From assembly GCA_947466585.1 (NCBI GenBank), contig CANIEU010000009.1:14923-78922 (forward strand): 64,000 bases of DNA. Reading direction: 5' to 3'. The DNA is from Fibrobacterota bacterium. GTDB taxonomy: Bacteria; Fibrobacterota; Fibrobacteria; UBA11236. Made by a program: the position numbers and the translations under genes. The notes below the pieces were generated by a model. The model saw only the letters and a program-made list of their open reading frames with translations. It was not told where the DNA came from and made no database searches. Shown here piece by piece: positions 2,802 through 39,795 of this stretch (positions within the stretch are counted from its first letter, which is position 1; every line of letters starts with the position of its first letter).

Positions 2802-2803
2802 AG

Positions 2804-2961
2804 GGTAGTAGGTAGACGGTAGATGGTAGTCGATAAAGAAAGAAGGACAAGAACAAGAACAACCCCTTTCCGGTCCGCTGCCTAAATTCTAATCCTCGGG
2901 ATATCGTTTTTTCTGGAATCTCATCAGTCTACCTACTACCGTCTACCGTCTACCTACTATC
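2804..2961. repeat. Compound inverted-repeat element, GGTAG/CTACC type (copy A)
   Basis: Left arm ggtagtaggtagacggtagatggtag (2804-2829) and right arm ctacctactaccgtctaccgtctacctactatc (about 2929-2961) are reverse complements. The core GGTAGTAGGTAGACGGTAG matches perfectly. The spacer is ~90 nt and A-rich. Confidence 0.8.
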
Positions 2962-2970
2962 TTACCCCCC

Positions 2971-3567
2971 ATGCAAAATCTGACCGATTCCATTCAGCGT
3001 TCCCTGGACTCGTCCCGCGATGTTTTGGCCGCGTTCGTCGCCGATCGTGAAAACGCCGCCACCATACGGCGCATGGCCGAAGCCGTGGCCGCGTGCTTTC
3101 AGGCCGGCAACAAGGTGCTCTCCTGCGGAAACGGCGGCTCCGCCTGCGACGCGCTGCACTTCGCCGAAGAATTCACCGGGCGCTTCAAGGGTGACCGCAA
3201 GGCCCTGCCGGTCATTCCGCTGCTCGACGGCGCGAACCTCACCTGCATCGCCAACGACTACGGCTTCGAGCACATCTTCTCGCGCGGTGTCGAAGCTTAC
3301 GGTAAGCCGGGCGACATGCTGCTCGCCATTTCTACCAGCGGCAATTCGGTCAATGTGATTCGGGGCATTGAGGCCGCGCGCGCGGGTGGTCTCAAGGTAT
3401 TGCTCTTCACGGGCAAGGATGGCGGAAAATTGCACGGAACCTGTGACGAAGAAGTTCTCGTGAAGTCCGTCGACACCGAACGCATTCAGGAAGCGCACAT
3501 GGTCGCGCTGCACATCCTCATCGAGTCGGTGGAGCGGATTTTGTTCCCGGAGAATTACAAGGACTAA
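2971..3567 (+). CDS. gmhA: Phosphoheptose (sedoheptulose-7-phosphate) isomerase, SIS domain
   Basis: KVLSCGNGGSACDALHFAEEFTGRF...ISTSGNS..VI...A...G.KV..TGKDGGK is near-collinear with E. coli GmhA. Confidence 0.8.
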   Translation: MQNLTDSIQRSLDSSRDVLAAFVADRENAATIRRMAEAVAACFQAGNKVLSCGNGGSACDALHFAEEFTGRFKGDRKALPVIPLLDGANLTCIANDYGFEHIFSRGVEAYGKPGDMLLAISTSGNSVNVIRGIEAARAGGLKVLLFTGKDGGKLHGTCDEEVLVKSVDTERIQEAHMVALHILIESVERILFPENYKD

Positions 3568-4257
3568 TCAGCCCTGCCCGTAGCTCGCATTCGGGCCGTG
3601 CTTGCGGTTGTAATGCTCGCTCAGAATGTGCCCGGGAATCGCGCCGATACCCGGGTTGAGCGCATACGTGCGCTGGGCCATTTCGGCCACGTGTTCCAGA
3701 GCCACCGCATTCTTGAGCGCCTGTGAGGCGCTCTTTCCCCACACGAACGGCGCATGATGCGCCACCAAAACCGCAGGCATGTCGAGCGGATTGATGTGTT
3801 CGAAGCGCTCGATGATGACCTTGCCGGTGTTGCCTTCATAGTCCGCGGCGATTTCCTCGGGCGTGAGATTACGGGTGACCGGGATGGTGCCCAGAAAATG
3901 GTCGGCGTGCGTGGTGCCGAGGCAGGGGATTTCGCGCAAGGCTTGGGCGAAGGCGACCGCATAAGTGCTATGCGTATGCACGATGCCGCCCACACCGGGG
4001 AACGCGCGATAAAGCATCACGTGGGTGATGGTATCCACCGAAGACCGGAGGGAACCTTCGACTTTCTTGTTTTCGAGGTCGACCACCACCATGTCTTCGG
4101 GCTTGAGTTTGGAATAGGCCACGCCGCTCGGCTTGATCACGACCAGACCCGTGTCACGGTCGATGCCGCTGACGTTTCCCCAGGTCAAGCCGGCGAGCGC
4201 GAGGCGTTCGATGTCTTTGTTGGCTTCGAGAACTTCGATTTTCAGGGCTTCCAGCAT
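3568..4257 (-). CDS. araD: L-ribulose-5-phosphate 4-epimerase (class II aldolase/adducin family)
   Basis: Motifs GNVSGIDRDTGLVVIKPSGV, HTHSTYAVAFAQ and GTTHADHF are present. The internal ATG at 4257, preceded by aaaggaaaag, is the preferred start (the ORF track extends to 4299). Confidence 0.75.
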   Translation of the reverse strand: MLEALKIEVLEANKDIERLALAGLTWGNVSGIDRDTGLVVIKPSGVAYSKLKPEDMVVVDLENKKVEGSLRSSVDTITHVMLYRAFPGVGGIVHTHSTYAVAFAQALREIPCLGTTHADHFLGTIPVTRNLTPEEIAADYEGNTGKVIIERFEHINPLDMPAVLVAHHAPFVWGKSASQALKNAVALEHVAEMAQRTYALNPGIGAIPGHILSEHYNRKHGPNASYGQG

Positions 4258-4334
4258 GGTCTTTTCCTTTGTTTGCCTGTGTTCAGGCGAATCTGGCAAG
4301 TTCTTGTTTTAATAGGGCTTGCGCGAATTGTGTT

Positions 4335-6035
4335 CTAGTTTCCCGCCTCGGCGCGGATCTGCAATAATTCCTTCATGACGTGGAACAATTCGGTTCCGTT
4401 TGTTTTGGTTGTACCAAAGGCGTCATGGAGATCGACGTAGAGGGCGTAGAGTTTTCGGTACGTTGCATGGGCTGCCGGGTCCGGCTGGTAAACCGTGTCC
4501 CGGAGTCCGCACAAGGCGGCCTGCGCCGCCGCCGTGTCGGCGAAACCACCTGCGGAGACCCCTGCCGCCACTGCACCGAAGGCAGCCGCGCCGAGTGCGC
4601 AGGTTTGAGCGCTGCGAGCGACCTTCATGGGGCGGCCGGTGATGTCGGCGTAGGTTTGTATGAGCAAGGCGTTTTTGTCGGCGAGGCCGCCGCAGTTGAT
4701 AACTTCGCGCACCGGTACGCCGTATTCTTCGATGCGCTCGATGATGCGCAAGGCTCCGTAAGCGGTGGCTTCGATCAGTGCGCGATAGATCTCGTGGGCC
4801 TTTGTATGCAGGGTCTGACCCAGCAGCAGGCCGGTGAGTCGTTGGTCGACAAGGATGGTACGGTTCCCGTTGTTCCAGTCGAGCGCGAGCAGGCCGCTGG
4901 CTCCCGGGGCGAGTTTCGCCGCTTCGCGTTCGAGCGCGGCGAATTTTTCGCCCGGCGTGGCACCGTACGACTCGGGCACATGGTTGTGCACGTACCAGAG
5001 GAAGATGTCGCCTACGGCGCTCTGTCCGGCTTCGATGCCGAAATACCCACCGAGTACGGATCCGTTCACGATGCCGCATACGCCGGGAATGTCTTCGAGC
5101 GGTCGGTCGGCGGGTGAGACCATGATATCGCAGGTGCTGGTGCCGAGGATTTTGACGAGGCTGCCTTCGCCGACTCCCGCACCCACGGCCCCCATATGTG
5201 CGTCGAAAGCGCCCACGGCTACGGCGGTGCCGGCACGCAATCCGGTTTTATGGGCCCACTCTTCCGAAAGCCCGCCGGCACGCACGTCGGAGGCGTGCGC
5301 CATATCATAGAGGCGGGCGCGCAAATCAGCCAGGGCCGGGTCGAGCGAGGCGAGGAAGGCGGTGTCTGGCAGTCCGCCCCAGGCGGGATTGAACATCGCT
5401 TTGTGTCCGGCGGCGCAGACGCTGCGCAGAAGTTTATCGGGCCGCGTTTCACCGGTGAGTACGGCGGGCAGAAAGTCGCACAGTTCGACCCAGGAATGAG
5501 CGGCGGCGAATACGGCAGGTGCGGTGTTTTTGCAATGCCAGATTTTGGCCCAGAACCATTCCGACGAATAGGTGCCGCCGCATTTGGCGAGGTACTGGGG
5601 CCGCTGCGCTTGCGCGGCGGCCGTGAGCGCCGCCGCTTCGGCATGCGAGGTGTGATCCTTCCAGAGCCAGCATTCTGCCGCGAGCAGGCCGCGGTATTCC
5701 GGGAGCAAGGCGAGCGGGGTGCCGTTGTGGTCGACAGGGAGAACCGTACTCCCGGTGGTGTCGACACCGATGCCGATCACTTCCGAGGGATCAAATGCCG
5801 GTTCCGCTTTGCGTGCTTCCGCAAGCACGCCGATCAGCAGCGCCTCAAGGCCGAGCAGATAATCACCGGGGTGTTGCCGTGCGATGTGCGGATCGGATGG
5901 GTCCGTCAGCACGCCGAGGTGACCGGAGGGATAGTCGAATACGGTGGTGGCGAGTTCGCGTCCGTTTGCGAGGTCGATGAGCAGGGCACGGCAGGAGTTG
6001 GTGCCGTAGTCGAGTCCGATGGCGTAACGAGACAA
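4335..6035 (-). CDS. araB: L-ribulokinase (FGGY carbohydrate kinase)
   Basis: N-terminus MSRYAIGLDYGTNSCRALLID is AraB-like, with FGGY N- and C-domains. It is adjacent to and co-oriented with araD. Confidence 0.8.
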   Translation of the reverse strand: MSRYAIGLDYGTNSCRALLIDLANGRELATTVFDYPSGHLGVLTDPSDPHIARQHPGDYLLGLEALLIGVLAEARKAEPAFDPSEVIGIGVDTTGSTVLPVDHNGTPLALLPEYRGLLAAECWLWKDHTSHAEAAALTAAAQAQRPQYLAKCGGTYSSEWFWAKIWHCKNTAPAVFAAAHSWVELCDFLPAVLTGETRPDKLLRSVCAAGHKAMFNPAWGGLPDTAFLASLDPALADLRARLYDMAHASDVRAGGLSEEWAHKTGLRAGTAVAVGAFDAHMGAVGAGVGEGSLVKILGTSTCDIMVSPADRPLEDIPGVCGIVNGSVLGGYFGIEAGQSAVGDIFLWYVHNHVPESYGATPGEKFAALEREAAKLAPGASGLLALDWNNGNRTILVDQRLTGLLLGQTLHTKAHEIYRALIEATAYGALRIIERIEEYGVPVREVINCGGLADKNALLIQTYADITGRPMKVARSAQTCALGAAAFGAVAAGVSAGGFADTAAAQAALCGLRDTVYQPDPAAHATYRKLYALYVDLHDAFGTTKTNGTELFHVMKELLQIRAEAGN

Positions 6036-6197
6036 ACAATTCCTCGCAGTTCGGTGAGAGCTGAAGAAGCGGAAAATGAAATTTTAACTGAATATAGGCC
6101 GTCGCACGCGACTCGATGCCGGATTTATGAGGGAAGATCGAAGCAAGAGTTTTCGATTCTCTCGTCCGTTCAATACGTCACAAATTAATGGGTCCAG

Positions 6198-6623
6198 TCA
6201 AAGAGCGGGCTGGGCGCGACGGCGACGATCCCAGCGGCGAGCCGCCCAAAAACCCAATAAAATTCCGGCGATGTCGACCGCCAGATCCTTGAGATCGAAC
6301 GTCCGGTTGGGCGTGAACAGCTGATGAATTTCGTCTAGCAGGCCGTAGAGCACGCCCACAGCCGGGGCGATCCATCCGCCCTTGGTCCAATGCAAAACCT
6401 CGTTGCCCAGCAACCGGGCCGTGAGGCCGGAACGAAAGGCGATCAGCACGCCGAGTCCGAAATAGGTGATGCCGTGCGCGACCTTGTCGGCGAAGGGAAA
6501 GTGCGGCAAGGGAAGATCCTGTCCGGGAATGCTGGACAAATAGAAGATGCCGCCCATGTAGAGCAGCGCGGCGAACCAGCCGAGGCGCGCGAAGATTCGG
6601 CGACCGGTATGCTTGCGGGGCAT
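6198..6623 (-). CDS. VanZ-like family membrane protein
   Basis: 141 aa, 3-4 TM helices, with the conserved LLDEIHQLF.P.R..D..D...D..G motif of VanZ-like proteins. Confidence 0.6.
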   Translation of the reverse strand: MPRKHTGRRIFARLGWFAALLYMGGIFYLSSIPGQDLPLPHFPFADKVAHGITYFGLGVLIAFRSGLTARLLGNEVLHWTKGGWIAPAVGVLYGLLDEIHQLFTPNRTFDLKDLAVDIAGILLGFWAARRWDRRRRAQPAL

Positions 6624-6646
6624 GCCGGTGCCGGGAACTTCGTGAA

Positions 6647-9256
6647 TCAGGCTTCAGGCTCCCCGTCGGTGGCATCCTGGGCTTCGTCAGCCACGGTATC
6701 CTCCGCTTCGGTTTCACCGTCGGTCTCCACGACAGGACCGGCTTCCGCCGCCTGCTGTGCGCGGGCCTGTTCGGCCGACTCAAGCTTCTCGGGATCGACG
6801 TCGTCCTTCTCGACGATGGTCACGCCGGTGACGGCGTCGCCTTCTTCGAGTCGGATCACGCGCACGCCCTGCGTGTCGCGACCGATCACGTTGATACCCC
6901 CGACTTCCTGCCGGATGATGTTACCCGTGCGGGTGATGATCAGGATTTCCTGATCTTCGCGCACCGACGCCATGCAAACGGCCGGCCCGGTCTTTTCGGT
7001 GATGCGGAAGTTGCGCACGCCCTTGCCGCCGCGGCCTGTGACGCGATATTCACCGGGTTCGGTGCGTTTGCCAGAGCCGTTTTCGGTAATGGTCAGTACG
7101 GTGATACCGTCTTCGACCACGTTCATCCCGATCACGACATCGCCTTCTTCGAGGTTGATGCCGCGTACGCCGCGGGTACCGCGTCCCATGGAACGGAACT
7201 TGCCCATGCCGAAGCGGTTGGCTTGTCCGAGGCGCGTGCCGATCATCACATCGTTAGCCGGGGAGGCCAACGCCACGCTGACGAGGCGATCGCCTTCGTT
7301 GAGTTCGATGGCGTTGATACCCGCCTGACGCGGACGTGAGTAAGCCTCCAGCGACATTTTGTTGATGACGCCGCGTTCGGTCGCGAACACGAGGAAGCGC
7401 GGATCTTCAAAGCCGCGCACCGGTACGAATGCGCTGACCTTCTCATCAGGTTGCAACTGGATCAGGTTGATCACCGCCTTGCCCTTGGCCGTGCGGGCCG
7501 CCTCGGGAATGAGGTGAACGCGCAACCAGTGGCAGCGGCCGAGGTTGGTAAACACCAACACGAAGCCGTGGGTCCAACCCACGAACAGGTGCTCGACGAA
7601 ATCTTCGTCTTTGAGGCCGGCTGCGGAGATGCCGCGTCCGCCACGACCCTGCAACTTGTAGGCGTCGGTACCGATGCGTTTGATGTAGCCGCCGTGCGAG
7701 ACGGTGATGACCATCGGTTCGTTGGGGATGAGGTCGAGCGCGTCGATGTCGTCGGCGTGATCCATGATCGCCGTGCGGCGTTCATCGCCGTGCTTTTCGA
7801 CGATGGCGATGAGTTCGCCCTCGATGATGGCCATGCGGCGGTCGCGGCTGCCGAGGATGTCTTGGAGATCGGCGATGGTTTTGAGGAGTTCCTGATACTC
7901 GTGCTCGATCTTGTCGCGCTCGAGACCGGTCAGGCGTTGCAGACGCATTTCGAGGATGGCGTCGGCCTGGCGTTCGGAGAGTTCGAACTGCTCCATCAAG
8001 CCTGCGCGCGCGGCGGAAGTGTCGTTGCTGGCGCGAATCAGCGCCACGATGGAATCGATATGGTCGAGCGCGATGCGCAGACCTTCGAGGATGTGCGCGC
8101 GGTCTTGTGCCTTGCGCAGGTCGAAGGCGGTGCGGCGTTCCACCACGTTGTGGCGGTGCTTGAGGAAGTAGAACACCAGATCGCGCAGGCCGAGGGTGCG
8201 CGGACGGCCTTCCACCAGAGCCAGATTGTTGATGCCGAAGGTTTCCTGCAATTGCGTGTGCTTGTACAGGGTGTTCAGCACCACTTCGGCAAAGGCGTCC
8301 TTTTTGAGCTCGATGATGATGCTCATGCCGTTGCGATCGCTCTCGTCGCGCAGGTCGGAGATGCCTTCGACTTCTTTGTCACGCACGAGCGCTGCCATTT
8401 TTTCGAGCAAGGTGGTCTTGTTGACCTGGTAGGGGATTTCCGATACCACGATGCGGTTGCGGCCGTTGGCCATTTCCTCGATCTCGCAACGTCCGCGCAC
8501 GACCACGCGCCCACGGCCCGTGAGATAGGCGTCGCGGATGCCGCTGCGGCCGTGGATGATGCCGCCGGTGGGGAAGTCGGGGCCGCTGACGAAAGGGAGC
8601 AAATCTTCCGCGCTGATGTCGGGGTTGTGGATCATCGCGATACAGGCGTTCACGATCTCACGCAGGTTGTGGGGGGCCATGTTGGTGGCCATACCTACCG
8701 CGATGCCCGTGCTGCCATTGACGAGCAGGTTGGGGAAGGCGGACGGAAGAACGGTCGGTTCCTTCAGGGACTCGTCGTAGTTCGGGACGAAGTCGACCGT
8801 ATCCTTGTCGAGATCCTGCAACACGAGCTCGGCGATTTTGTCCATGCGGGCTTCGGTGTAACGCATGGCCGCAGCGCGGTCGCCGTCGATGGACCCGAAG
8901 TTGCCCTGACCATCGACTAGCGGATACCGCATCGAGAAGCCTTGGGCGAGACGCACCAGCGTATCATAGATCGATGAGTCGCCGTGCGGATGGTACTTGC
9001 CCATCACCTCACCGACGATATTGGCGGACTTCTTGTAGGGCTTGTCGTTGGAAAGCGAAAGCGTGTCCATACCGAACAACACGCGCCGATGCACGGGCTT
9101 CAGTCCGTCGCGGACGTCGGGAAGGGCGCGCGACACGATCACGGACATCGAGTACCGGAGGTACGACATCTTCATCTCGTCTTCGATGAAGGCGTCGACC
9201 ACCTTTCCGCTGTTCGTGCCCCCGGCTGCGGGGATGGCGCTGATTTCGTTGCTCAT
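6647..9256 (-). CDS. gyrA: DNA gyrase subunit A
   Basis: [31 protein letters not shown] and the active-site Tyr region are present, followed by a C-terminal beta-pinwheel. There is an acidic, low-complexity C-terminal tail. Confidence 0.95.
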
Positions 9257-9333
9257 GACGGTACTCCTGGACTTTTAACGAGAGAATTCAAGAAAATGCG
9301 GATCGGATCGAACGGTTTGAAAAACGGGTGCGG

Positions 9334-10149
9334 TTACCGCGCGGCTTGAATGGTTGCTTGAGTCGCAGCGGGGCTGGGCGAGAGACTGTTCAGCCAGGCG
9401 GCGCGGAGCTGAAGGTCGGCCAGGGCGGATTCGTCCGACTGGGAGACGCGCAGCGGCGTCACCGCGATGTAGTTCTCCCGCAGCACGGCGTCGTCGGTTC
9501 CCACCTCGAACAATTCGGCCGGTTTGTGACCGAGCAGGCGGTGGGCGGAAATTCCGTGCGAGGTGGTTTCGTCAACGTAGTGGTCTCGGAACATCACGGT
9601 GCTCATCCGCGTAAAACGGGAGCCGGCCACATCTGAGGGCGCACAGGCCGGGAAGTTGATGTTCCAGAAGGTTCCGGGCTTGGGCAGCGATTCCGGGGCC
9701 CGGAGCAGGTTCAGGAGCCATTCCAAGGCATATTCGAGATGCACCGGGGTGCTTTCGGAGAGGCTGACCGCCAGTGCGGGGATGTTCCACAGCGCGGCTT
9801 CGCGGGCGGCGGCCACGGTTCCGGAGTACACGGCGCTGATGCCTGCGTTTTCGCCGAGGTTCGGGCCCGAGATTACCACATCGGGAAGCTGGTCGCGCAA
9901 CAAATGCGACACGGCAAACTTGACGCAATCGCTGGGCGTTCCGTCGACCCGGTACAGCGGCCAAGGCGTGGTCATCTCTTGCTCGTAGGTGAGGAACTTG
10001 CCGGTACCATGCGTGAAGGCGTGCGACTTGCCGCTTTGATCGTTTGCGGGGGCGGCCACCACGACATCGTGCTCGCCCGCCAGTGCGTCCGCGGAGCGGT
10101 ACAGCACGGGGCTCAGAACGCCGTCGTCGTTGGTCAGGAGAATGCGCAT
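9334..10149 (-). CDS. surE: 5'/3'-nucleotidase SurE
   Basis: MRILLTNDDG start and SGPNLG.N motif. Start placed at the internal ATG at 10149. The longer ORF to 10302 merely reads through the upstream repeat array. Confidence 0.85.
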   Translation of the reverse strand: MRILLTNDDGVLSPVLYRSADALAGEHDVVVAAPANDQSGKSHAFTHGTGKFLTYEQEMTTPWPLYRVDGTPSDCVKFAVSHLLRDQLPDVVISGPNLGENAGISAVYSGTVAAAREAALWNIPALAVSLSESTPVHLEYALEWLLNLLRAPESLPKPGTFWNINFPACAPSDVAGSRFTRMSTVMFRDHYVDETTSHGISAHRLLGHKPAELFEVGTDDAVLRENYIAVTPLRVSQSDESALADLQLRAAWLNSLSPSPAATQATIQAAR

Positions 10150-10159
10150 GAAACCTTTT

Positions 10160-10477
10160 TCAATAGGGTTTTCAATAAGGTTTTCAGGTGTGCGTTCGGA
10201 GCCGTTTTTAGAGCGGTTTTCCGAACAGTTATTCGAACAGTTTTCCGTACAGAATTCCTGCGCATTTTGAGCAGGAATTTTAGGGACTTTGAACCTTATC
10301 AAAGGTAGCTTCGGGGGCGTTTTTTCGCAACAAAAACCCGCTTTATTCCCAAGGTTTCTGAGGTGTTTTCCGGGCCAGTTTTCAAGGCGTTTTCTAGATT
10401 CCGCGCTTCGTGTTTTCCGGCCCGAATTCCGGTTCCGGTTTCACAGTTTTTCCATGGTTTTCCCAAGGTTTTTTTTC
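10160..10477. repeat. Array of degenerate ~12-bp tandem repeats (consensus ~GTTTTCCGAACA) in the divergent surE/hisS promoter region
   Basis: At least 14 GTTTTC/GTTTTT cores in ~320 bp, for example gttttccgaaca gttattcgaaca gttttccgtaca gaattcctgcgca ttttgagcagga. Locally AT-rich. Both strands stay open across it because the repeats lack stop codons. Confidence 0.8.
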
Positions 10478-12213: not shown

Positions 12214-12427
12214 TCGTTCCCACCATGGAGCGCTTCTTTCGCTGGCGGGAGTGGTAGGGTTCCACACCCGCCCTGCCTAATCCCTACCATCGATAAGGAT
12301 CAAGGTCTTATTGACACGGGATCTCGAGCGGAGAATCGCCTCCGAAGGCGCATCGATCACTCCCCGTTTTTTACATTTGCGGCTCTAAAATCGGCCCAAA
12401 CCTCTCCAAACCTGGAAAAGGAATCCC

Positions 12428-13501: not shown

Positions 13502-13525
13502 TCCAAGCGGCGCTGTCCGAGAACG

Positions 13526-29692: not shown

Positions 29693-29698
29693 TTACCT

Positions 29699-30226: not shown

Positions 30227-30229
30227 CCC

Positions 30230-31021: not shown

Positions 31022-31174
31022 CGCTTTTTTAGTTAATTAGTCGATTTTAGCTAGAAGTGCCGAGATCTAGTCCCAATCTCCTGAGCAAGGTAAAATCGAT
31101 TATTTGATTCGTTAAATCGGTAAATAAGCTTTAAAAAAGCCATATCCCCATAATATTTCGATACTATAGGGATA
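31022..31174 (+). promoter_or_regulatory. AT-rich regulatory region upstream of the carH-like gene; candidate operator
   Basis: Strongly AT-rich in a GC-rich genome. Contains direct repeats aaatcgattat.../aaatcggtaaat and an inverted repeat ctaga-N11-tctag. Confidence 0.45.
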
Positions 31175-32236: not shown

Positions 32237-34026
32237 AGGCCGCGATGAATGATGAGATGAATCGTAACAGGAAATGTGACATGCCTTCCAAGATGTCCAT
32301 TGAGGACAATCAATCGAGCCTGCCCGCATGGTTGCGCGCGCAATCCGATACCTTGTCCACCGAAACCTCGATGGAATATCTAGCGCGGCACAGTCACTCC
32401 TTCCGCTATGCCGCGCGCTTTTTACCCCCGCCGTTCGACACGCATGTCGCCGATGTGTACGCCTTTTGCCGATTCACCGACGATCTGGTCGACGGGTCCA
32501 CGCTGCCTGTTCCCGAGTTGCGCGCGCGCCTCTCCGACTGGCGGCGCTTGGCGCAACAAGCGCATAGAGGAGTGCCCACGGGCTTCGCTCTGCTCGACCG
32601 CCCCCTGATCGACATGGGGCGGCGCGGCATCCCCTTTGATTACGCCAGCGAGTTGATCGCTGGTGTGGCCATGGATTTGGAGCCGCGCCGCTACGCCACA
32701 CTCGCAGAACTCGATCTTTACAGTTACCGCGTGGCCTCAGTGGTAGGCCTGTGGCTCACCCGGCTCGTCGGAGTGAACGATCCGCAGGTACTGAAGCGTG
32801 CCGCCGATCTGGGTCACGCCATGCAGGTGACCAATATCCTCCGGGATGTGGGGGAGGACTGGGCCGTGGGTCGTTTGTATCTGCCGCTCGATGTGCTGGC
32901 CCGTCATGGAGTTCGCGAGGAAGACTTGGCAGAGTCCATGGCTTCCGCATCCGTCGATTCCCTTCCTCTGGGCTGGCAGGGTGCGATGGAAGAACTGATG
33001 TCCCTCGCCGATGCCCGCTACTGGAGTGCCTTCGGTGCGATTCCCGCCTTGCCCCGGTTTTTCCGCGTTCCCGTCGCGGTGTCGGGTCTTGTGTATCGCG
33101 ACATCCACACCGCCATCCGCCGCAACCGGTATGACAACCTGCGCTGCCGGGCACACACCTCGCGCACTCGTAAACTGTGGCTGGGCCTGAAGGCCCGCAT
33201 GCAAGTGGGCCTTTCAGGTATCGGCATCGGAGTCGAACGAGAGCAGGTGACTTCGCATTCCCTCAAGGACGCGCCGGAAAGTGCGGCAGCGCGGGGGTTC
33301 AGCCTGCGGAAGGCCGGCCTGCGCATCGTGCTACCGCTGTTCCTGTTGTTGTTGCTGTTTCTCGCGGGTGCCGCCGCAGGTTCGGCGCAGCCTCAAACTC
33401 CGCCCGCGCTCGAGTCGAGCGCAGAAGCGCGGGCGCGCCGGGAGTTGACTCGCATCGAGACCGAAATGCGGGGGCAACCGGAGAACCTCGATCTGCAGCT
33501 GCAACGCCTGCGTATTTTGCATCCCCTCAGCGTTCAGGATGCGGCGCTGCTGCCCGTGTCGCGGTCGGCGCGCGATCAGGCCGAACGCACGGTACGTGAA
33601 AATCCGGGAACGGCGCTGCAATCCAAGCAGCGTGGGGCAGAGCCGCTCAACCTGCTGCTGGCCTACGCAGGCGCGCTCGACGTGGTGGAAGCGCGCCATG
33701 CCTTTTGGCCGCGGGCCCGCCTCGAACCCTTGGAGCGCGGATTGCCGCGACTCGATTCGGCGGTGCAGCGCGATCCCGACAACGCCGAGATCCGTTATTT
33801 AAGACTCACCAGCAGCTATTACCTGCCGTTTTTTCTGGGGCGCAAATGGAGCGTGCGCGAAGATTTTAAGGCGTTGGCGGAATTGTTGCCGCGCGCGCGC
33901 GACGCCTACCCGGCGGAGTGGTATGCCGCCATCACCGATTTCGTACTGGAGAAGGGCGATCTCGGCGAGCGCGAGAGAAGCCGGTTGCAACGCGCGCGGC
34001 GCGAAGCGTTCGCGCGGAACCCGTGA
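32233..34026 (+). CDS. crtB: Phytoene synthase fused to ~250-aa C-terminal TM-anchored domain of unknown function
   Basis: N-terminal ~330 aa carry squalene/phytoene synthase motifs (YAFCRFTDDLVD, MQVTNILRDVGED). A hydrophobic helix IVLPLFLLLLLFLAGAAAG and a charged alpha-helical domain follow in the same frame. ATGA overlap with the regulator. Confidence 0.8.
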   Translation: MKAAMNDEMNRNRKCDMPSKMSIEDNQSSLPAWLRAQSDTLSTETSMEYLARHSHSFRYAARFLPPPFDTHVADVYAFCRFTDDLVDGSTLPVPELRARLSDWRRLAQQAHRGVPTGFALLDRPLIDMGRRGIPFDYASELIAGVAMDLEPRRYATLAELDLYSYRVASVVGLWLTRLVGVNDPQVLKRAADLGHAMQVTNILRDVGEDWAVGRLYLPLDVLARHGVREEDLAESMASASVDSLPLGWQGAMEELMSLADARYWSAFGAIPALPRFFRVPVAVSGLVYRDIHTAIRRNRYDNLRCRAHTSRTRKLWLGLKARMQVGLSGIGIGVEREQVTSHSLKDAPESAAARGFSLRKAGLRIVLPLFLLLLLFLAGAAAGSAQPQTPPALESSAEARARRELTRIETEMRGQPENLDLQLQRLRILHPLSVQDAALLPVSRSARDQAERTVRENPGTALQSKQRGAEPLNLLLAYAGALDVVEARHAFWPRARLEPLERGLPRLDSAVQRDPDNAEIRYLRLTSSYYLPFFLGRKWSVREDFKALAELLPRARDAYPAEWYAAITDFVLEKGDLGERERSRLQRARREAFARNP

Positions 34027-34814
34027 TGCGTATCGATATGTCTCAATCCCTCCCTGTTTTTTCGAACCTGCTTGCGCGCGGCTTCGAAATCGTATTTGAC
34101 CTTGTGAAGAGTGTCGGCCTCGCCGGGGTGCATTGGAGCATCCCCGCTGGCCTGGCGCAGCGCCTGCCGGCCGATCGACCCGTGGTGCTGTTCGGAAACC
34201 ACTCCAGCAATTGGGATGGTTTTCTGTACCGTGACCTGCAAAAGAAACTGCGCCCCGGCATGCCGATCTACAGCCTGATGCTCGAGCGTGAATTGCGGCG
34301 TCTGCCGCTCTTTCGTGCCCTGGGCGGCATCGGTATTGATTCGACCTCTCCCGGCTCCGTGGCTCGTGCCTTGCGGTCTGCAAGAGCGCTGCGAGGGCCC
34401 TCTTTTACTTCCGCCGGCTTTTTCTTCAGCGTGTTTCCGCAAGGCTCCACCTATCCCGCCGGCAAACGCCCGCTGGGATTTCAGGAAGGCCTCCGGCACT
34501 TTGCAAAAGCGCTGGGCCCGGTGACCTTGTTGCCGGTGGCGTTGCAATTCGAACTGCTGGGCAGCGTGCGTCCGCATGCCTTTGTTTCCGTAGGCGAGCC
34601 GATCGCGGTTCCAGAATCCGCGGGGAAGGTCATTGACCTCGGCTCCATTCCCTCGCTCGATGTGCTCGAAGCACAGGTGACGGCTCTGTTGGATGGGCTG
34701 AACGCCGATCTCTCGGCACGCGGCGAAGCCGCGGTTTCAATACCTGGCGAAGCCACGGTTTCAATGCCGGGCGAAGCGGCGGTATCCAACGTAGTAGGGG
34801 AGAGTCCCGTATGA
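34026..34814 (+). CDS. Lysophospholipid/1-acyl-sn-glycerol-3-phosphate acyltransferase-family protein (likely carotenoid glycoside acyltransferase, CruD-like)
   Basis: H-x4-D acyltransferase motif (NHSSNWDGF) and FPQGST. The C-terminal 27-bp x3 tandem repeat encodes GEAAVSIPGEATVSMPGEAAVS. ATG overlaps the crtB stop. Confidence 0.65.
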   Translation: MRIDMSQSLPVFSNLLARGFEIVFDLVKSVGLAGVHWSIPAGLAQRLPADRPVVLFGNHSSNWDGFLYRDLQKKLRPGMPIYSLMLERELRRLPLFRALGGIGIDSTSPGSVARALRSARALRGPSFTSAGFFFSVFPQGSTYPAGKRPLGFQEGLRHFAKALGPVTLLPVALQFELLGSVRPHAFVSVGEPIAVPESAGKVIDLGSIPSLDVLEAQVTALLDGLNADLSARGEAAVSIPGEATVSMPGEAAVSNVVGESPV

Positions 34815-36022
34815 TCGCTGCCCTGTTGCATGCCGGCTTCTTCGCCGCAAACCTCGAGTCGGTAGCGGCCACCGCTTCGTTGTGCATCCTTGCGGGCATG
34901 GTTTGCATGGTCGTATTCAACACCCTGACTGCGCCACGCGCAGGGGGCCAAAAGTCGCCAACGGTGTTCCCGAAGGTGAGTTTGCTGGTGCCCGCGCGCA
35001 ACGAGGCGCACAACGTGCCCATTCTCGCCGCGCATTTCGAAAAGCTGGAGTATCCGAATTTGGAGATCATTCTCCTCGACGATGCTTCCGACGATGGCAC
35101 GGGGGCGGCGCTCGGAGATCTGGTAAACCTCCCGGCATTGCGCGGGCGCGCCCGCTCGTTGCGGGGCGCAGAATTGCCCACCGGTTGGCTCGGGAAAAAC
35201 TGGGCCTGTCATCAACTCGCTCAAACTTCCTCGGGAGATGTGCTGATCTTTTGCGATGCCGATGCGCGCCCCGGGCCGCAAGCGGTGACCCGCACCGTGG
35301 CGTTGTTGGAACACTATGGCGTCGGCTGCGCCACCTTGATGCCGCGCCAGGTGCTCGGGTCGTGGGCCGAGCGCGCGGTGATTCCGGTACTGCTGCACAT
35401 CTCGCTGTTCTGCTTCCTTCCCATCGCCCTCGTGCCGCGCCTGCGCTGGAAGCGCCTCGGGGTGGGGAACGGGCAATGGCTTTCGTTCCGTCGCTCCGCA
35501 TACGCCGCGGTGGGCGGCCATGCGGGCGTGCGCGACAAGGTGGTGGAAGATATCGCCCTTGCGCAGCGTGCCCAGACCCATGGAAACGGTCTGGTCGTGG
35601 GGTTGGCGACCGATACGCTTGCCGTGCGCATGTACCGAAACTTCCGCGAAGTGTGGGATGGTTTCGGCAAAAACGTGTTCGTGCTCACAGGCGGTACGCT
35701 GTGGCAGACGCCGTTCTTCGGCTTGTTTTTTGCGCTGATCCACATTCTTCCCTGGCTGCTCTTCCTCCTGCATCCGCAGTTGTGGGGGCTGCCGCTCGCT
35801 TTGCTTTTGGTTTGTCGCGTGCTCACCGCCCGTGCCTTGGGCGAACCGCTGGGGGCCATTGCCGGACAAGTCGCCGGGTCCATCCTGGTTCCCCTCATCG
35901 TCGCGCGCTCGCTGTTCGATTTCCGTTTTCATCGCCTGCAGTGGAAGGGCCGCATTCTGAATGCCGGTCCGCCTCCGGTGCAAAGTTTGGCCCAGAATCG
36001 GGCCTCCAAGGAGTCTTTGTGA
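34811..36022 (+). CDS. Family-2 glycosyltransferase (likely carotenoid glycosyltransferase, CruC/CrtX-like role)
   Basis: GT2 motifs (SLLVPARNEAHNV, ILLDDASDDGT, FCDADAR) and C-terminal TM helices. It sits inside the carotenoid operon. Confidence 0.7.
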   Translation: MIAALLHAGFFAANLESVAATASLCILAGMVCMVVFNTLTAPRAGGQKSPTVFPKVSLLVPARNEAHNVPILAAHFEKLEYPNLEIILLDDASDDGTGAALGDLVNLPALRGRARSLRGAELPTGWLGKNWACHQLAQTSSGDVLIFCDADARPGPQAVTRTVALLEHYGVGCATLMPRQVLGSWAERAVIPVLLHISLFCFLPIALVPRLRWKRLGVGNGQWLSFRRSAYAAVGGHAGVRDKVVEDIALAQRAQTHGNGLVVGLATDTLAVRMYRNFREVWDGFGKNVFVLTGGTLWQTPFFGLFFALIHILPWLLFLLHPQLWGLPLALLLVCRVLTARALGEPLGAIAGQVAGSILVPLIVARSLFDFRFHRLQWKGRILNAGPPPVQSLAQNRASKESL

Positions 36023-37551
36023 ATTCCGTGACCGAACAAAAAAAAGGGGCAGTGCCCCGAACCGCCATCGTGATCGGCTCCGGCTTCGGCGGGCTGTCCG
36101 CCGCTATTCGCCTGCAAAGCCGGGGTATTCAGGTCACACTGGTGGAGCAACGGGAAAAGGTCGGCGGCCGCGCCTACCAAATGAAAGAAGGCGGGTACAC
36201 CTTCGACATGGGCCCGTCCCTCATCACCGCGCCGCAGATCCTCGACAAGGTGTTTGCCTGTGCGGGCACATCGTTGTCGGCAGCCTTGCCGCTGTTGCCG
36301 CTCGATCCGTTTTACCGCGTGTTCTTTCACGATCACAGCCGCTTCGAGTACAACGGATCCCCGGAAGGCATGAAGGCGCAGATGCGCCAGTACAATGCCG
36401 CCGATGCGGACCGCTACGACGATTTCATGAAGGCCGTGGCGCCCATTTATGCGGAAGTGATCGAGAAGGGATTGGGCAGTCGTTCCTTCGGGAATCCCTG
36501 GACGATGATTCGTTTTATCCCCACGGTGATTCGCCTCGGGGCGTGGCGTACTGCGACGCAATTCGCCAACAAGTACTTCAAGGACTGGCGTCACCGCTTC
36601 GTGTTCAGCTTCCATTCGCTGTACATCGGCGGCAACCCGTTTCACTGCCCGGCGATTTACCAGATGATTCCGTTTTTGGAGCGGGCACAGGGTGTCTGGT
36701 ACACGCCGGGCGGCATGTATTCGTTGACGCGGGCACTGGAAAAGGCCTTTATCGGACTCGGTGGTGTGGTGCGCACGTCCACCCCGGTAACGCGCATCCG
36801 GGTTGAAGGAGGCAGAGCGACCGGTGTAGAAATTCCGGAGGGATTCCTTCCCGCCGATCTGGTGGTGAGCAACGCCGACGTGGGATTCACCTACGCGAAA
36901 CTGATCGCACCGGAGCATCGCCGCAAGTGGACTGACGCGAAGGTGAACCGTCAGGAATTCACGATGAGTTGCTTCCTGATCTTCTTGGGCGTGAAGAAGC
37001 GCTATCCGGAATTGGCCCATCATACCCTGATTCTGGCGGAGCGCTATAAGGATCTGTTGAAAGACATTTTCAAGAACAAGATTCTGCCTGGTGATTTCAG
37101 CATGTACGTGCACGCGCCCACGCGCACCGACGACACCATGGCGCCGCCAGGGTGCGAGAGTCTGATGGTGCTGGTTCCGGTGGCGAATCAGGCGTCGGGT
37201 ATCGACTGGAAGACTCAGGCGCAGCCCTATGCGGACAAGATCCTGGACTTTTTGGAACAGTGGGGTTTGACTGATTTACGGGAGAACCTGGAAGTCTTTA
37301 AGCTGTTCACGCCCGATGATTTCGAATCGGAGCTTTCGGCGTGGCGGGGCAATGCCTTCGGCATCGAGCCGCGTTTGTCGCAGACGGGTTACTTCCGCCC
37401 GCACAACCGGAGCGAGGATCTGGCGGGGTTGTACTTTACCGGGGCGGGCACGCATCCCGGCGCGGGTGTTCCCGGCGTGATGCTTTCTGCCGAGGCCGCA
37501 GAGCGGTGTATCGTCGAGGATTGGCCCGCGTTAACGAAGAAAGGTTTATGA
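36019..37551 (+). CDS. crtI: Phytoene desaturase
   Basis: FAD-binding IVIGSGFGGLSAAIRL and a CrtI-family C-terminus (GLYFTGAGTHPGAGVPGV). GTG start overlaps the upstream stop. Confidence 0.9.
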   Translation: MNSVTEQKKGAVPRTAIVIGSGFGGLSAAIRLQSRGIQVTLVEQREKVGGRAYQMKEGGYTFDMGPSLITAPQILDKVFACAGTSLSAALPLLPLDPFYRVFFHDHSRFEYNGSPEGMKAQMRQYNAADADRYDDFMKAVAPIYAEVIEKGLGSRSFGNPWTMIRFIPTVIRLGAWRTATQFANKYFKDWRHRFVFSFHSLYIGGNPFHCPAIYQMIPFLERAQGVWYTPGGMYSLTRALEKAFIGLGGVVRTSTPVTRIRVEGGRATGVEIPEGFLPADLVVSNADVGFTYAKLIAPEHRRKWTDAKVNRQEFTMSCFLIFLGVKKRYPELAHHTLILAERYKDLLKDIFKNKILPGDFSMYVHAPTRTDDTMAPPGCESLMVLVPVANQASGIDWKTQAQPYADKILDFLEQWGLTDLRENLEVFKLFTPDDFESELSAWRGNAFGIEPRLSQTGYFRPHNRSEDLAGLYFTGAGTHPGAGVPGVMLSAEAAERCIVEDWPALTKKGL

Positions 37552-37883
37552 GGGTTGTCGTGGAAGGAGATCGGACAACCAGTTCGTGCTCGGAGCGGCT
37601 CCGCTCCGGACGCTATAAACAGGCCCTGCGGGCCAGTTTGTCGCTAGGCTATCCGGTGCTCGCCGCTCTTCCGCGCGAACCGGTGCGCCCGCTCTCCACG
37701 ATGACAGTTTGCAAGCTTTCCCAGATCAAAACACCTTGGCACGACCGCCGGGCGGAGGCGGAAAAACTTCTCGAAGCGGAGCGAGACGCGGGGTCCCCTC
37801 TGGGGACGTCGAGCGAGCATCGAAAGTTTTTCCGTCGACCATCCCGGCGCATGCACGAGCCCTCGTTTGGAAATGGTCGATGA
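37548..37883 (+). CDS. Possible small hypothetical protein between crtI and the cyclase (uncertain)
   Basis: 111-codon ORF whose ATG overlaps the crtI TGA (tATGAg) and whose TGA overlaps the cyclase ATG (cgATGa). GC3 (~65%) is lower than in neighbours, so it may be a non-coding spacer. Confidence 0.3.
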   Translation: MRVVVEGDRTTSSCSERLRSGRYKQALRASLSLGYPVLAALPREPVRPLSTMTVCKLSQIKTPWHDRRAEAEKLLEAERDAGSPLGTSSEHRKFFRRPSRRMHEPSFGNGR

Positions 37884-38602
37884 GTTTCTGGAATTCTCAC
37901 CTCACATACCTCACGATCGACCTGCTCACGATCGCGTTTCCGCTCGCGTACAGCTTTACCGCACGGTCGGGCTTCAGCAAGCACCTGGGTCGCGTATGCG
38001 CGGCCATCGCATTGGTCGCCGTCCCCATGCTCGTCTGGGACGCCGTGTTTACGGCCCACGGAGTCTGGGGATTCAATCGAGATTACATCCTCGGCTTCTC
38101 TCCATTCGGGTTACCGGTGGAGGAAATCCTCTTCTTCCTCTGCATTCCCTTCGCCTGCCTGTTCATCTACGACACCGTTAAAAATTTCCCCCGCCTCGCA
38201 CTGCCCGAACGCCCCGTCCGCATTCTTGCCGGCCTGCTCGCCGTCGTGTTGATCGCGTTCGCTACGGCGAACACACACCGCGCCTACACGCTGCTCGCCT
38301 GCCTCGGCGCCGCGCCTTTCCTGGTCGCCCTCGCCGCTGGTCACCTCCGCTTTCGCCTCGGCCACATCGCCAGTGCCTACATGTTCCACCTGATTCCGTT
38401 CTTCCTCGTCAACGGAATCTTGACCGGCATGTTTACCGCGCAACCCGTGGTGTGGTACAACAACGCCGAAAACCTCGGCATCCGTTTGGGCAGCATTCCC
38501 ATTGAAGATGCCGCATACTCCATGATCCTACTGTTCGGTGCGATCTTTCTACTGGAACGACCGACCTCGCAGAAAACCGAAAAACCCGGAAGCCCACTGT
38601 GA
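37880..38602 (+). CDS. Lycopene cyclase domain protein (CrtYcd-type, fused heterodimeric cyclase)
   Basis: ~240-aa polytopic membrane protein with the duplicated cyclase-domain pattern (W..HL.YL..DL...FP and a second half with PVEE.LFF). Position between crtI and crtZ supports the call. Confidence 0.6.
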   Translation: MSFWNSHLTYLTIDLLTIAFPLAYSFTARSGFSKHLGRVCAAIALVAVPMLVWDAVFTAHGVWGFNRDYILGFSPFGLPVEEILFFLCIPFACLFIYDTVKNFPRLALPERPVRILAGLLAVVLIAFATANTHRAYTLLACLGAAPFLVALAAGHLRFRLGHIASAYMFHLIPFFLVNGILTGMFTAQPVVWYNNAENLGIRLGSIPIEDAAYSMILLFGAIFLLERPTSQKTEKPGSPL

Positions 38603-39039
38603 TTCTCGACCTGCTGATTTTCTTCTCCGTCTTTTTTCTGATGGAAGCTGTCGCCTGGGCCGCGCACAAATACGTGATGCACGGGTTTTTGTGGTCGCTG
38701 CATGAATCGCACCATCTGCCGCGCACGGGGGCGTTCGAGAAGAACGACTGGTTCGGCGCGTTCTTCAGCTTGGTGGCCATGGCGCTGTTCGCGGCGGGGT
38801 ATTTCATCGACGTCCGCTTTACCGCGGCGGGGTTGGGCATGACGGCGTACGGCTTCGCCTACCTGTTTCTGCACGACATTCTCAATCACAAACGTTTCGG
38901 AATTCACATCAAGCCGAACAATCGTTATCTGCGGTCCGTGCTGCAGTCCCATCGCATCCACCATGCGACCCAGGGCAAGGACGGCTGCGTGTCGTTCGGG
39001 TTTCTGGTACCGATGCGAGCCAAAAGGCGCATTTTTTAA
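38599..39039 (+). CDS. crtZ: Beta-carotene 3-hydroxylase
   Basis: His boxes AAHKYVMHG, HESHH, HDILNHKRF and HRIHHAT..GKDGCVSFGF are collinear with Pantoea CrtZ. GTG start overlaps the upstream stop. Confidence 0.85.
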   Translation: MILDLLIFFSVFFLMEAVAWAAHKYVMHGFLWSLHESHHLPRTGAFEKNDWFGAFFSLVAMALFAAGYFIDVRFTAAGLGMTAYGFAYLFLHDILNHKRFGIHIKPNNRYLRSVLQSHRIHHATQGKDGCVSFGFLVPMRAKRRIF

Positions 39040-39213
39040 AAAAACCGCTCCGGATTCGTCGGAACAGGCGCTTTTTTGCCGGCCCGAATTGGCAATTTCG
39101 GCCACAATTCCTATCATTTCGCCCCAATCTTACCGGATGCGCGTGTTACGGGTTCCAAGGAACCGACCGCTGTCCAGACGGCTTTTGAGAAATTTTCGAG
39201 AAGGAAACGTGCC

Positions 39214-39582
39214 ATGCATCCCAAAATCGCCCTCGTCCACGCCAGCGTTCACCGCACCGATCTGCCGGAATTCCGTTCCGGCGACACCGTCAGCGTCGAC
39301 TTCAAGGTTATCGAAGGCAACAAGGAGCGCGTCCAGACCTTCACGGGCGTTGTGATCCAACGCCGCGGTTCCGGCGTGTCGGCCACCTTCACGGTGCGCA
39401 AGATCTCGAACGGCATCTCGGTGGAGCGTATTTTCCCGCTCGAGTCGCCCCGCCTCACCGGCATCAAGGTCAGCCGCCTCGGCAAGGTCCGTCGCGCCCG
39501 TATCTTCTACATGCGCGGACTGTCTGGCAAGAGTGCCCGCATCAAGGAGCGCAAGGTTCCTTACGCTGGCAAGAAGGCGTAA
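39214..39582 (+). CDS. rplS: 50S ribosomal protein L19
   Basis: [29 protein letters not shown] is present, with RBS aaggaaa 8 nt upstream of the ATG. Confidence 0.9.
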
Positions 39583-39607
39583 GAAGCTCTTTCCGAGCAA
39601 ACACAAT

Positions 39608-39645
39608 GACCCGCTTTCGGCTCGCGCCGGAGCGGGTTTTTTGTT
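39608..39645 (+). terminator. Rho-independent terminator after rplS
   Basis: acccgctttcgg-ctcgcg-ccggagcgggt followed by T6. Confidence 0.7.
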
Positions 39646-39650
39646 GCCTA

Positions 39651-39795
39651 GAAGTGGAGTGGTTAGTGGATAGTGAATAGGGTGCTGTGGCTGGAGAGGT
39701 GACTCGTGTTTCGAGAAAACTACCCGCAGCATCCTTATTTGCATGTCTAACCACTATCCACTACCCACTATCCACTAACCACTCTTATCTACCTT
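39651..39795. repeat. Compound inverted-repeat element, AGTGG/CCACT type (copy D)
   Basis: Left arm gagtggttagtggatagtg is the exact reverse complement of the right arm cactatccactaaccactc. The right arm also contains ccactacccacta, shared with copy E. ~60-nt spacer. Confidence 0.8.

Follow-up and report, generated by a model that had tools for sequence, protein, structure and literature searches.

What are the long, compound inverted repeats that recur at gene ends in a 64,000-nucleotide (nt) stretch of DNA from a Fibrobacterota bacterium (assembly GCA_947466585.1, contig CANIEU010000009.1, positions 14,923 to 78,922; the whole stretch is referred to as the window), and what keeps them there? 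A preliminary description of this DNA regarded them as one family with pentamer-tandem arms and offered three candidates, namely mobile elements of the MITE (miniature inverted-repeat transposable element) or REP (repetitive extragenic palindromic) type, a protein-binding motif, and RNA structures of the 3′-untranslated region (3′-UTR). The elements appear to be neither mobile elements nor a sequence family in the usual sense. They are paired arrays of simple sequence in inverted orientation, with the G- or purine-rich arm usually 5′ on both strands, which fill the untranslated space from the stop codon onward. Their anatomy is non-random, they are intergenic and anchored at stop codons, they persist at orthologous junctions while their units turn over, they lack the features of mobile elements, and they are spread widely over phyla. 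The explanation preferred here, held with about as much belief as doubt, is composite: the elements would be locus-bound, fast-evolving palindromic microsatellites that arise by slippage and arm-to-arm copying and are retained as barriers at gene ends. Confidence is high regarding what the elements are and low regarding what they do.

All loci lie at, or within about 5 nt of, the positions first reported for them: the compound inverted repeats A (2793-2962), B (15263-15410), C (19396-19512), and E (39657-39785), the solo arm D (29653-29692), and a decayed remnant (12254-12290). In a search reaching up to 250 nt, A, B, C, and E are the four longest inverted-repeat pairs of the window, and their arms are indeed reverse complements at 75-94%: 34-nt arms at 94% in C (19400-19433 and 19473-19506), 30-nt arms at 90% in A (2806-2835 and 2930-2959), 39-nt arms at 77% in E (39657-39695 and 39746-39784), and 40-nt arms at 75% in B (15276-15315 and 15369-15408). 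The perfect 26-base-pair (bp) match lies at 19400-19425 and 19481-19506, and the core that had been reported as common to two copies is the 19-mer GGTAGTAGGTAGACGGTAG, which occurs at 2804-2822 in A and at 19407-19425 in C. The pentamer period, by contrast, was a misreading. Tandem Repeats Finder gives a period of 7 nt at every arm, with 3.3-5.3 copies, and the pentamers are conserved 5-nt cores inside heptamers that carry two variable bases. The heptamer is GGTAGNN in A, C, and D and GGNTAGT, equivalent to AGTGGNT, in B and E.

The gene contexts of the elements were taken from a Pfam scan of 40 open reading frames (ORFs) of the window. Element A stands between a membrane-like ORF of 130 amino acids (aa) and gmhA. 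Its G-rich arm (2793-2832, four to five GGTAGNN units) contains the TAG stop codon of the ORF (2799-2801), its 95-nt spacer (2833-2927) has no homology to the other spacers, and its C-rich arm (2928-2962, four to five NNCTACC units) ends 9-10 nt before the gmhA ATG (2971). Element B separates convergent genes for a GntR-family regulator and an alpha/beta hydrolase; the G-rich arm (15263-15315), composed of degenerate GAGTGGN/TAGTGGC heptamers with a period of 7/14, starts 9 nt past the GntR-family stop codon (15254), and the C-rich arm (15360-15410, seven CCACTAN units) covers the last eight codons and the stop codon (15384-15386, minus strand) of the hydrolase gene. Element C lies between a conserved, Fibrobacteria-specific ORF of 172 aa and a convergent isochorismatase gene, with a G-rich arm (19396-19425, four GGTAGNN units) that starts 6 nt past the stop codon of the ORF and a C-rich arm (19479-19512), containing the perfect 26-nt complement of 19400-19425, that overlaps the isochorismatase stop codon. 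Element E follows rplS and its canonical terminator and precedes recG: the G-rich arm (39657-39695, three AGTGGNT units and then an inner complementary segment) lies just past the rplS terminator hairpin (39610-39643), and the C-rich arm (39746-39785, five CCACTAN units) ends 17 nt before the recG GTG (39802). The solo arm D (29653-29692, plus strand) is a C-rich array (five CCTAnTA units); it is preceded by a DUF2238 gene and hairpins and ends 6-8 nt before the rimM ATG (29699). The short copy at 12254-12290, in the spacer between QueF and an aminotransferase gene, is present as a hairpin, GGTAGGG...CCCTACC, and not as the tandem array that had been assumed. It is probably a contracted remnant, because two relatives (L216 and L217) have large inverted arrays of period 7 or period 8 at the same junction.

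A position at or over stop codons, including those of convergent genes, was borne out for A, B, and C; E differs in coming after a canonical terminator and before recG. The left arms of A, B, and C contain the upstream stop codon or begin no more than 9 nt beyond it, and the flanking ORFs terminate at array-borne TAGs. All arrays of the window are intergenic, overlapping at most the last few codons; four of the five array loci are inverted pairs, and none of the five divergent spacers of the window carries an array. The loops, or spacers, measure 39-95 nt, and the elements lack a 3′ T-tract, as had been stated. The spacers, which had been thought to share short blocks, align at 26% column identity and are not homologous. 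One block, TGTTCTCT, occurs twice, in B and C only, and 25% of shuffles equal that; with such unalignable spacers, a conserved spacer motif was rejected.

The arrays depart strongly from chance. GGTAGNNGGTAG, with at most one mismatch allowed, has 22 matches in the window vs. 1.2 expected, a number reached in 0 of 100 shuffles, and AGTGGNTAGTGG has 10 matches vs. 0.4 expected. A sequence-agnostic detector of period 7, which calls a 14-nt segment if s[i]=s[i+7] holds over 75% of it or more, returned eight arrays per 64 kb, every one of them an arm of A, B, C, D, or E, vs. about 0.4 in shuffled sequence. The RNA folds of the elements are stable on both strands (z = -3.8 to -10.3). Furthermore, the fraction of the arms that pairs is 0.75-1.00 in the best register, still 0.7-0.8 after a shift of one arm by 7 or 14 nt, and 0.2-0.3 in registers that are out of phase; thus, the stems tolerate slippage. 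Element A is identical base for base among independent assemblies from six sequencing runs (five cover the whole element and one, L124, the right part only) and is therefore no assembly artifact.

The most informative evidence was obtained from orthologous junctions, a comparison suggested in the preliminary description. Syntenic contigs of relatives (denoted by L and a number) were examined in three regions, around gmhA, the 172-aa ORF, and rimM, where the flanks are 77-82% identical in DNA to the window. Arrays persist at the same junctions, and their units are replaced. Between the 130-aa ORF and gmhA, all five genomes carry an array, of GGTAGNN in the window, ACGGTNN in L127, a decayed left arm with a CTACC right arm in L128, GCTCAAT in L130, and GGTATGT in L131. 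The junction of the convergent GntR-family and hydrolase genes is occupied in four of four genomes, by AGTGGNT in the window, GCTCAAT in L213, ACAGCNN in L216, and the period-8 unit CAACAGTA in L217. Between the 172-aa ORF and the isochorismatase gene, five of six genomes have arrays, comprising GGTAGNN in the window, CAGGTNA in L214, the period-8 unit GCAACGGN in L215, ACAGCNN in L216, and several arrays in L217, and the sixth, L213, has a remnant, namely a 7-bp hairpin built of the outermost units only. Occupancy varies at two further junctions. The convergent gmhA-aldolase junction is empty in the window and L128 and holds inverted arrays of CAGTTTA, GTCGGAA, or TGAAATC in L127, L130, and L131 (3/5); the QueF-aminotransferase junction has large arrays in two of four genomes, L216, with arms of 34 and 117 nt, and L217, with a period of 8, whereas the window and L213 have remnants there. 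By contrast, arrays are absent from neighboring junctions (0/4, 0/4, 0/6, and 0/4), which include aminotransferase-GntR, IlvC-isochorismatase, hydrolase-YceG, and YceG-Obg; aminotransferase-GntR and IlvC-isochorismatase have conserved canonical terminators. Divergent spacers across the genomes are likewise almost all without arrays.

Position and geometry are thus conserved between genomes, and sequence, unit, and length are not. The start of the left arm falls between 8 nt before and 41 nt after a stop codon, and the end of the right arm either coincides with the stop codon of the convergent gene or precedes the following start by 19-90 nt. Of the eight relatives' loci tested, seven yielded inverted pairs, 12 of which were scored, and the clear arrays of the lineage are nearly all complementary pairs, with few singles. 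G+C-rich, low-complexity period matches inside coding regions being counted as false positives, the arrays of the relatives are intergenic save for one pair in L220 that lies inside a called 96-aa ORF. This ORF (L220 15920-16210) is probably a miscall, most of it being a heptamer array of the AGAACTC type together with its inverted counterpart, located between the genes for a desaturase and a lycopene cyclase. The elements turn over faster than the flanking DNA: L213 and L214 encode an identical 172-aa protein and align at 88-92% in DNA, and their alignment breaks exactly at the element, where one genome has 11 nt and the other 65 nt. Solo arrays can persist as well, since L218 carries a nine-unit array of the same CCTAnTA type as D that follows a canonical rpsP terminator and stops 8 nt short of the ATG of rimM. 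Comparison of occupied sites with empty or contracted ones, as far as it could be made, showed no direct repeats flanking the elements, the flanks at the gmhA-aldolase sites being too diverged for alignment of a target-site duplication. A TAG in all frames was considered as the purpose of the units; this holds for GGTAGNN and GGNTAGT and is ruled out as a general explanation by the stop-free units GCTCAAT, CAGTTTA, GTCGGAA, and GGGTACY. Two spacers of the relatives are more complex. The spacer orthologous to that of C in L217 (10519-10931) is 413 nt long and contains three array types (ACAGTNN, GCTGTNN, and TTTCAGA) and a duplicated block of ~100 nt; hence, arrays can stack and duplicate as blocks. 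The isochorismatase-IlvC spacer of L216 (11237-11867) holds four tandem copies of a ~37-nt unit, GGAGGTCTCTCATCCTCACCCCCAACCCCCTCACAAA, unlike the heptamer arrays.

Copies are not restricted to the window, and the architecture is found in relatives and in many phyla. Period-7 arrays occur at 10.9 per 100 kb in the window, 17 per 100 kb in the relatives, and 2.2 per 100 kb in 553 kb of unrelated bacterial contigs, vs. about 0.6 per 100 kb in shuffled sequence; the corresponding densities of period-8 arrays are 0, 9, and 0.2 per 100 kb. The unrelated contigs are 80 loci from a metagenome scan with Obg (48-58% identical), which is so conserved that the loci belong to unrelated bacteria and yielded no orthologous junctions; they were used for background only. 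Clear arrays that are not GC-rich are present in only three of these contigs, two of which have units resembling the GGGATTC (Xanthomonas) and GGGACTG (cyanobacterial short tandemly repeated repetitive, STRR) types. Furthermore, (GGTAGNN)x4 was scanned against one genome per species of GTDB, and the matched loci contain at least 46 tandem-armed inverted pairs with many different units. Among the matches listed, record titles name Acidobacteriota, Planctomycetaceae/Pirellulales/Gemmataceae, Chloroflexi lineages, Gemmatimonadetes, Cyanobacteria, Elusimicrobia, Betaproteobacteria, Saccharimonadales, and others, and one Thermomicrobiales contig (Chloroflexi lineages) has five scored pairs in 8 kb. 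In the matches listed, the window, and the relatives, the 5′ arm has more G than C in 51 pairs, more C than G in 5, and equal numbers in 4, a count conditioned on the GGTAG query. The rule of a G-rich 5′ arm is looser in the Fibrobacteria relatives, where a purine-rich 5′ arm fits better.

How could an element keep its place and its shape and lose its sequence? Replication slippage in a 7-8-nt register would expand, contract, and homogenize each arm. Copying between the arms, likely by intramolecular template switching on the hairpin, would preserve complementarity during drift of the unit; such switching is the known mechanism of quasi-palindrome correction. An element could then stay at one gene junction over the long term with its sequence wholly replaced. 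Slippage would account for the unequal arms of L216 (34 vs. 117 nt), the remnants, the solo arms, and the duplicated blocks of L217. Retention would be expected where a hairpin is harmless or useful, i.e., after convergent genes and between co-transcribed genes. Transcripts of either strand would form stems of 25-35 bp that pair even if slipped by one or two units, and such stems may provide a generic 3′-end or intercistronic barrier, through exonuclease protection, transcript insulation, or weak termination, in the manner of REP sequences in Escherichia coli. Solo C-rich arrays beside starts, such as D, may serve as unstructured leaders. In the window, ATG starts generally follow tracts rich in C and T (...TTACCCCCC ATG, ...TTTTCCCCCC ATG, and ...CCCGTTCC ATG; examples at 2962-2970, 18849-18871, 21595-21612, and 29690-29698) and have no Shine-Dalgarno motif before them; position -1 is A in 3% and C or T in 85% of cases, figures that are indicative only, the starts having been called roughly by longest ORF. 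A C-rich arm beside a start therefore fits the local composition of leaders.

Several points weigh against this composite explanation. The slippage and template-switching steps are read from patterns in the sequences and do not account for the preference for 7-8 nt. Identity of element A across the six sequencing runs implies that the arrays are not hypermutable in the short term and do not resemble contingency loci. The 51:5 bias toward a G-rich 5′ arm, in part conditioned on the GGTAG search pattern, is not accounted for either. The B-orthologous copy of L216 and two sites of L220 adjoin canonical terminators, as does E in the window; thus, the elements are not simply the terminators of their genes. 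A role at the RNA level gained no support from the stem mismatches: in seven co-directional elements, a small sample, stem transitions produced G·U pairs on the sense strand nine times and on the antisense strand nine times, beside 10 transversions, so that no strand-specific G·U signature was observed. Of the 3′-UTR structure first proposed, the position and the folds on both strands fit; the G·U balance, the neighboring terminators, and the solo arms before starts weaken it. Finally, strong persistence at particular junctions could reflect selection for some specific function.

Among the alternatives, the one that survives best, although it is still considered unlikely, is that the elements are neutral by-products of mutation, "genomic weeds" of slippage and palindrome-templated repair that are tolerated away from promoters and coding sequences and have no function in RNA or DNA. 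The unit sequence, the unit length of 7 or 8, the arm length, and the spacers are all unconstrained, as neutrality would have it, and the even G·U count, the remnant of L213, the empty gmhA-aldolase sites of the window and L128, the co-occurrence with canonical terminators, and the patchy distribution among the 80 control contigs, as a lineage-specific mutational bias would predict, point the same way. Neutrality is harder to reconcile with presence that is strongly junction-specific and conserved (4/4, 5/5, and 5/6 plus one remnant vs. 0 at neighboring junctions) despite flanks of only 77-82% identity, with clear arrays that are nearly all complementary pairs and not singles, and with the B and C junctions, which have no other visible terminator in most genomes.

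Conservation of spacing under changing sequence could also be the mark of a host protein that reads arrays of sites in a 7-nt register, either a binder of double-stranded DNA, such as a nucleoid protein or gyrase (as at bacterial interspersed mosaic elements, BIMEs), or a binder of single-stranded RNA or DNA of the cold-shock or S1 type with an oligonucleotide-binding (OB) fold. The inverted layout would then reflect a symmetric complex, and the solo C-rich arrays before starts would be translational leaders; in both forms together, this proposal is judged improbable. It fits the consistent orientation of the arms and the CCTAnTA solo array 6-8 nt before the rimM ATG, which is conserved in a relative whose RimM is 86% identical. 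Each CspB protein binds a single heptamer, and Beggiatoaceae have TAACTGA arrays immediately upstream of starts (PMC4679880); heptamer arrays of Nostoc influence promoter reporters (bioRxiv 10.1101/2022.06.06.494920). However, units as unrelated as GGTAGNN, GCTCAAT, ACAGCNN, and TGAAATC occupy orthologous sites, and no single sequence-specific binder fits all of them. Moreover, a period of 8 occurs too, and the window offers no candidate gene with a link to the elements.

An equally improbable proposal goes further and treats tandem-armed inverted repeats as a class of elements across phyla, defined by geometry (a period of 7-8 nt, inverted arms, and the G-rich arm 5′) and actively maintained and used. 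Upkeep would require a dedicated process of arm-to-arm copying or a conserved factor that reads the period. Between co-directional genes, the base of the stem would place the stop codon of one gene next to the following start; element A has its stop codon within the 5′ arm and the ATG 9-10 nt past the 3′ arm. By opening the stem at its base, a ribosome that terminates there could make the downstream start accessible, resulting in long-range translational coupling, and between convergent genes the elements may act as two-way insulators.

It is very unlikely that the elements are bidirectional, U-tract-less transcription terminators of their flanking genes. Location directly past stop codons and between convergent genes, the absence of any canonical terminator from the B and C junctions in most genomes, and hairpins that are very stable on both strands would suit that role. 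Intrinsic terminators have a short GC-rich stem, a 3-8-nt loop, and a 3′ T-tract, whereas these elements have loops of 39-95 nt in the window and no following T-tract; a terminator scan of positions 1-20000 found no site at A, B, or C. The genome does employ canonical T-tract terminators (58056-58090, 20422-20454, and 39610-39643 in the window), E and the copies in L220 and L216 adjoin terminators of this kind, and a C-rich 3′ arm would form a strong RNA:DNA hybrid, so that release should be disfavored on established terminator mechanics.

Least credible of all is the mobile family offered in the preliminary description, i.e., non-autonomous elements of the MITE, REP, or REPIN (paired-REP hairpin) type with a transposase encoded elsewhere. 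In its favor, the elements are intergenic inverted repeats of 120-170 nt, A and C share a 19-mer, and every GGTAG unit contains GTAG, the tetranucleotide of REP 5′ ends. However, there is no common core or spacer, no terminal inverted repeat flanking a shared body was seen, and the Pfam scan of 40 window ORFs turned up neither a transposase nor a REP-associated tyrosine transposase (RAYT). Arms differ in length by whole units, and most units of the relatives lack GTAG. Units change from locus to locus and from one orthologous site to another at a constant position, which is the opposite of what a fixed-sequence mobile element at varying sites would produce.

The known repeats that the elements resemble most are heptameric simple sequence repeats (SSRs), which were observed in 2007 to be over-represented in bacteria and for which polymerase slippage has been proposed, both as cited in PMC4692102. 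Arrays of GGGAATC in Xanthomonas and of GGGGAYT in Nostoc/Anabaena consist of tandem 7-nt units, usually about four, with fixed and variable positions; about 90% are intergenic, the place where the upstream ORF ends is closer to them than the next gene, and few lie between divergent genes (Rehm et al., 2015, PMC4692102). GGGAATC forms 70-75 convergent inverted pairs per genome that are able to form stem-loops, and the arrays are transcribed and occur at the same junctions in related species with differing length and sequence, no function having been found (PMC4692102). The elements described here share the head-to-tail 7-nt units in at least three copies, the intergenic, stop-proximal position, the inverted pairs, and the altered sequence at the same junction. 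They differ in their host phylum, Fibrobacterota, in the additional period of 8 in relatives, in being nearly all inverted pairs in this lineage, and in the long spacers (39-95 nt) of the window. Unlike GGGAATC, the units of the window contain GG at most and those of the relatives (GCTCAAT, TGAAATC, and ACAGCNN) no G tracts, so that the G-quadruplex idea, with its four tracts of at least three G, is not transferable and was rejected. The window elements thus show every defining feature of the loosely defined heptameric-SSR kind except G-quadruplex potential.

Other systems are more distant. The first report of STRR heptanucleotides, as cited in PMC4692102, is from Calothrix PCC 7601. STRR sequences likewise comprise several heptanucleotide units in tandem in the non-coding DNA of one genome, with lineage-specific abundance; they are mainly direct arrays used for fingerprinting, with unrelated units, and neither inverted pairing nor anchoring at stop codons defines them. 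The original STRR report is said to be that of Mazel in 1990. Direct TAACTGA heptamer repeats are found in Beggiatoaceae, cyanobacteria, and Bacteroidetes (MacGregor, 2015, PMC4679880), and D and its L218 counterpart are similarly sense, direct heptamer arrays a few nt before starts, translation-machinery genes included. The unit of D is different and C-rich, and the TAACTGA genome has 169 direct sets and one inverted (PMC4679880), whereas the window lineage has mostly inverted pairs. Geobacter metallireducens has multicopy heptanucleotide elements, GGACCGG x4 and MTYCTGA x5 (Aklujkar et al., 2009, PMC2700814), likewise of four to five tandem units, and one class has been drawn looping back onto the opposite strand; they are sequence families found by BLAST, lie partly inside genes, and were read as regulator sites. 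Heptamer arrays also lie near recF/recO in Nostoc (bioRxiv 10.1101/2022.06.06.494920). REP, BIME, and REPIN sequences resemble the present elements in being intergenic and intra-operon hairpins, often only a few nt from stop codons, and in their inverted doublets. GTAG occurs in every GGTAG unit, though as part of the repeat, and most units of the relatives lack it. REP hairpins can shield upstream mRNA from 3′ exonucleases. REP/REPIN sequences are a conserved family spread by RAYTs, with one imperfect palindrome of 20-40 nt in many near-identical copies; here, the position is conserved, the arms are microsatellites, and the window alone holds two unit types. A MITE would have terminal inverted repeats around a conserved internal sequence and target-site duplications; the present elements have no conserved internal sequence, no flanking direct repeats were seen at the sites that could be compared, and the positions are orthologous. 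Iterons are 17-22-bp direct repeats beside an initiator gene or origin; the present units are 7 nt long, inverted, and dispersed at housekeeping junctions, and no rep gene was found among the window ORFs scanned with Pfam.

The feature is real and striking, and it is not a new category; a new phylum and new units are added to a known and little-studied class of bacterial repeats. Many bacterial genomes hold an excess of heptamer microsatellites, and published accounts concern Xanthomonas, a few cyanobacteria, Beggiatoaceae, and Geobacter. To these are added Fibrobacterota, the inverted-pair architecture in many more phyla, and the tie of the elements to a gene junction and not to a sequence, hairpin geometry and the 7-8-nt period outlasting the unit; literature searches returned no description of such arrays from Fibrobacterota, of variants with a period of 8, or of units being replaced at a fixed junction. 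The geometry is detectable by a sequence-agnostic rule, so that a census across genomes and a correlation with repair or polymerase genes are possible. If the hairpins shape mRNA 3′ ends or couple neighboring genes, they would constitute an overlooked gene-end layer in organisms with poorly understood terminators; neutral elements, on the other hand, would offer a clean natural system for slippage and palindrome-templated repair.

Regarding the setting of the elements, the window has a G+C content of ~60%, and the named homologs of the flanking proteins belong to Fibrobacteria/Fibrobacterota metagenome-assembled genomes, including one 80% identical to the 172-aa ORF. The two hypothetical ORFs located before GGTAG elements both terminate in acidic tails; a comparison of the two showed no homology. 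Covariance models of Rfam gave no match at the elements at the gathering threshold or at E ≤ 5, and a sigma-70 promoter scan gave fewer matches than shuffles and none within the elements.

The rpsP-rimM-trmD-rplS cluster (28291-39582), in which D and the terminator preceding E lie, is interrupted. DUF2238 is located between rpsP and rimM, and a B12-binding helix-turn-helix regulator gene and carotenoid genes (phytoene synthase, desaturase, lycopene cyclase, and hydroxylase) are located between trmD and rplS; the carotenoid insert is kept in the relatives L219 and L220, but rplS is inverted there. The rpsP (S16) ORF (28291-28881, 196 aa) contains tandem repeats of 9/18/30 nt at 28637-28823, rich in GCT/GCC, GAA, and AAA/AAG codons, which would encode an Ala/Lys/Glu-rich C-terminal extension; weak Rfam matches within these repeats are spurious. 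A stretch of low G+C content (42102-47639, 0.49-0.56 vs. a background of about 0.60) looks like a small defense or foreign island. It includes a YhcG/DUF1016 PDDEXK nuclease gene split into two ORFs (N-domain, 42602-43219; C-domain, 42102-42509), possibly by a frameshift, a Schlafen-group-3-like helicase gene (43922-45796), and an overlapping MazG-like gene (45793-46290).

Three further repeats of the window are of other kinds. A perfect 23-nt AT-rich inverted repeat (60609-60677, ATATTATGTAAACTATTTGGTTT / AAACCAAATAGTTTACATAATAT, with a 23-nt spacer) is situated in a spacer of low G+C content, with a tRNA gene (61079-61149, minus strand) about 400 nt away, and could be an operator or the relic of an integration site. 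A 30-nt inverted repeat (47915-47981), 83% complementary and with a 7-nt loop, lies in the long spacer upstream of carB (48476). Finally, 24-nt tandem repeats of 2.3-2.6 copies at 16351-16407, in the 3′ part of the YceG/MltG gene, and at 34722-34783 are probably coding repeats, as the period is a multiple of 3.

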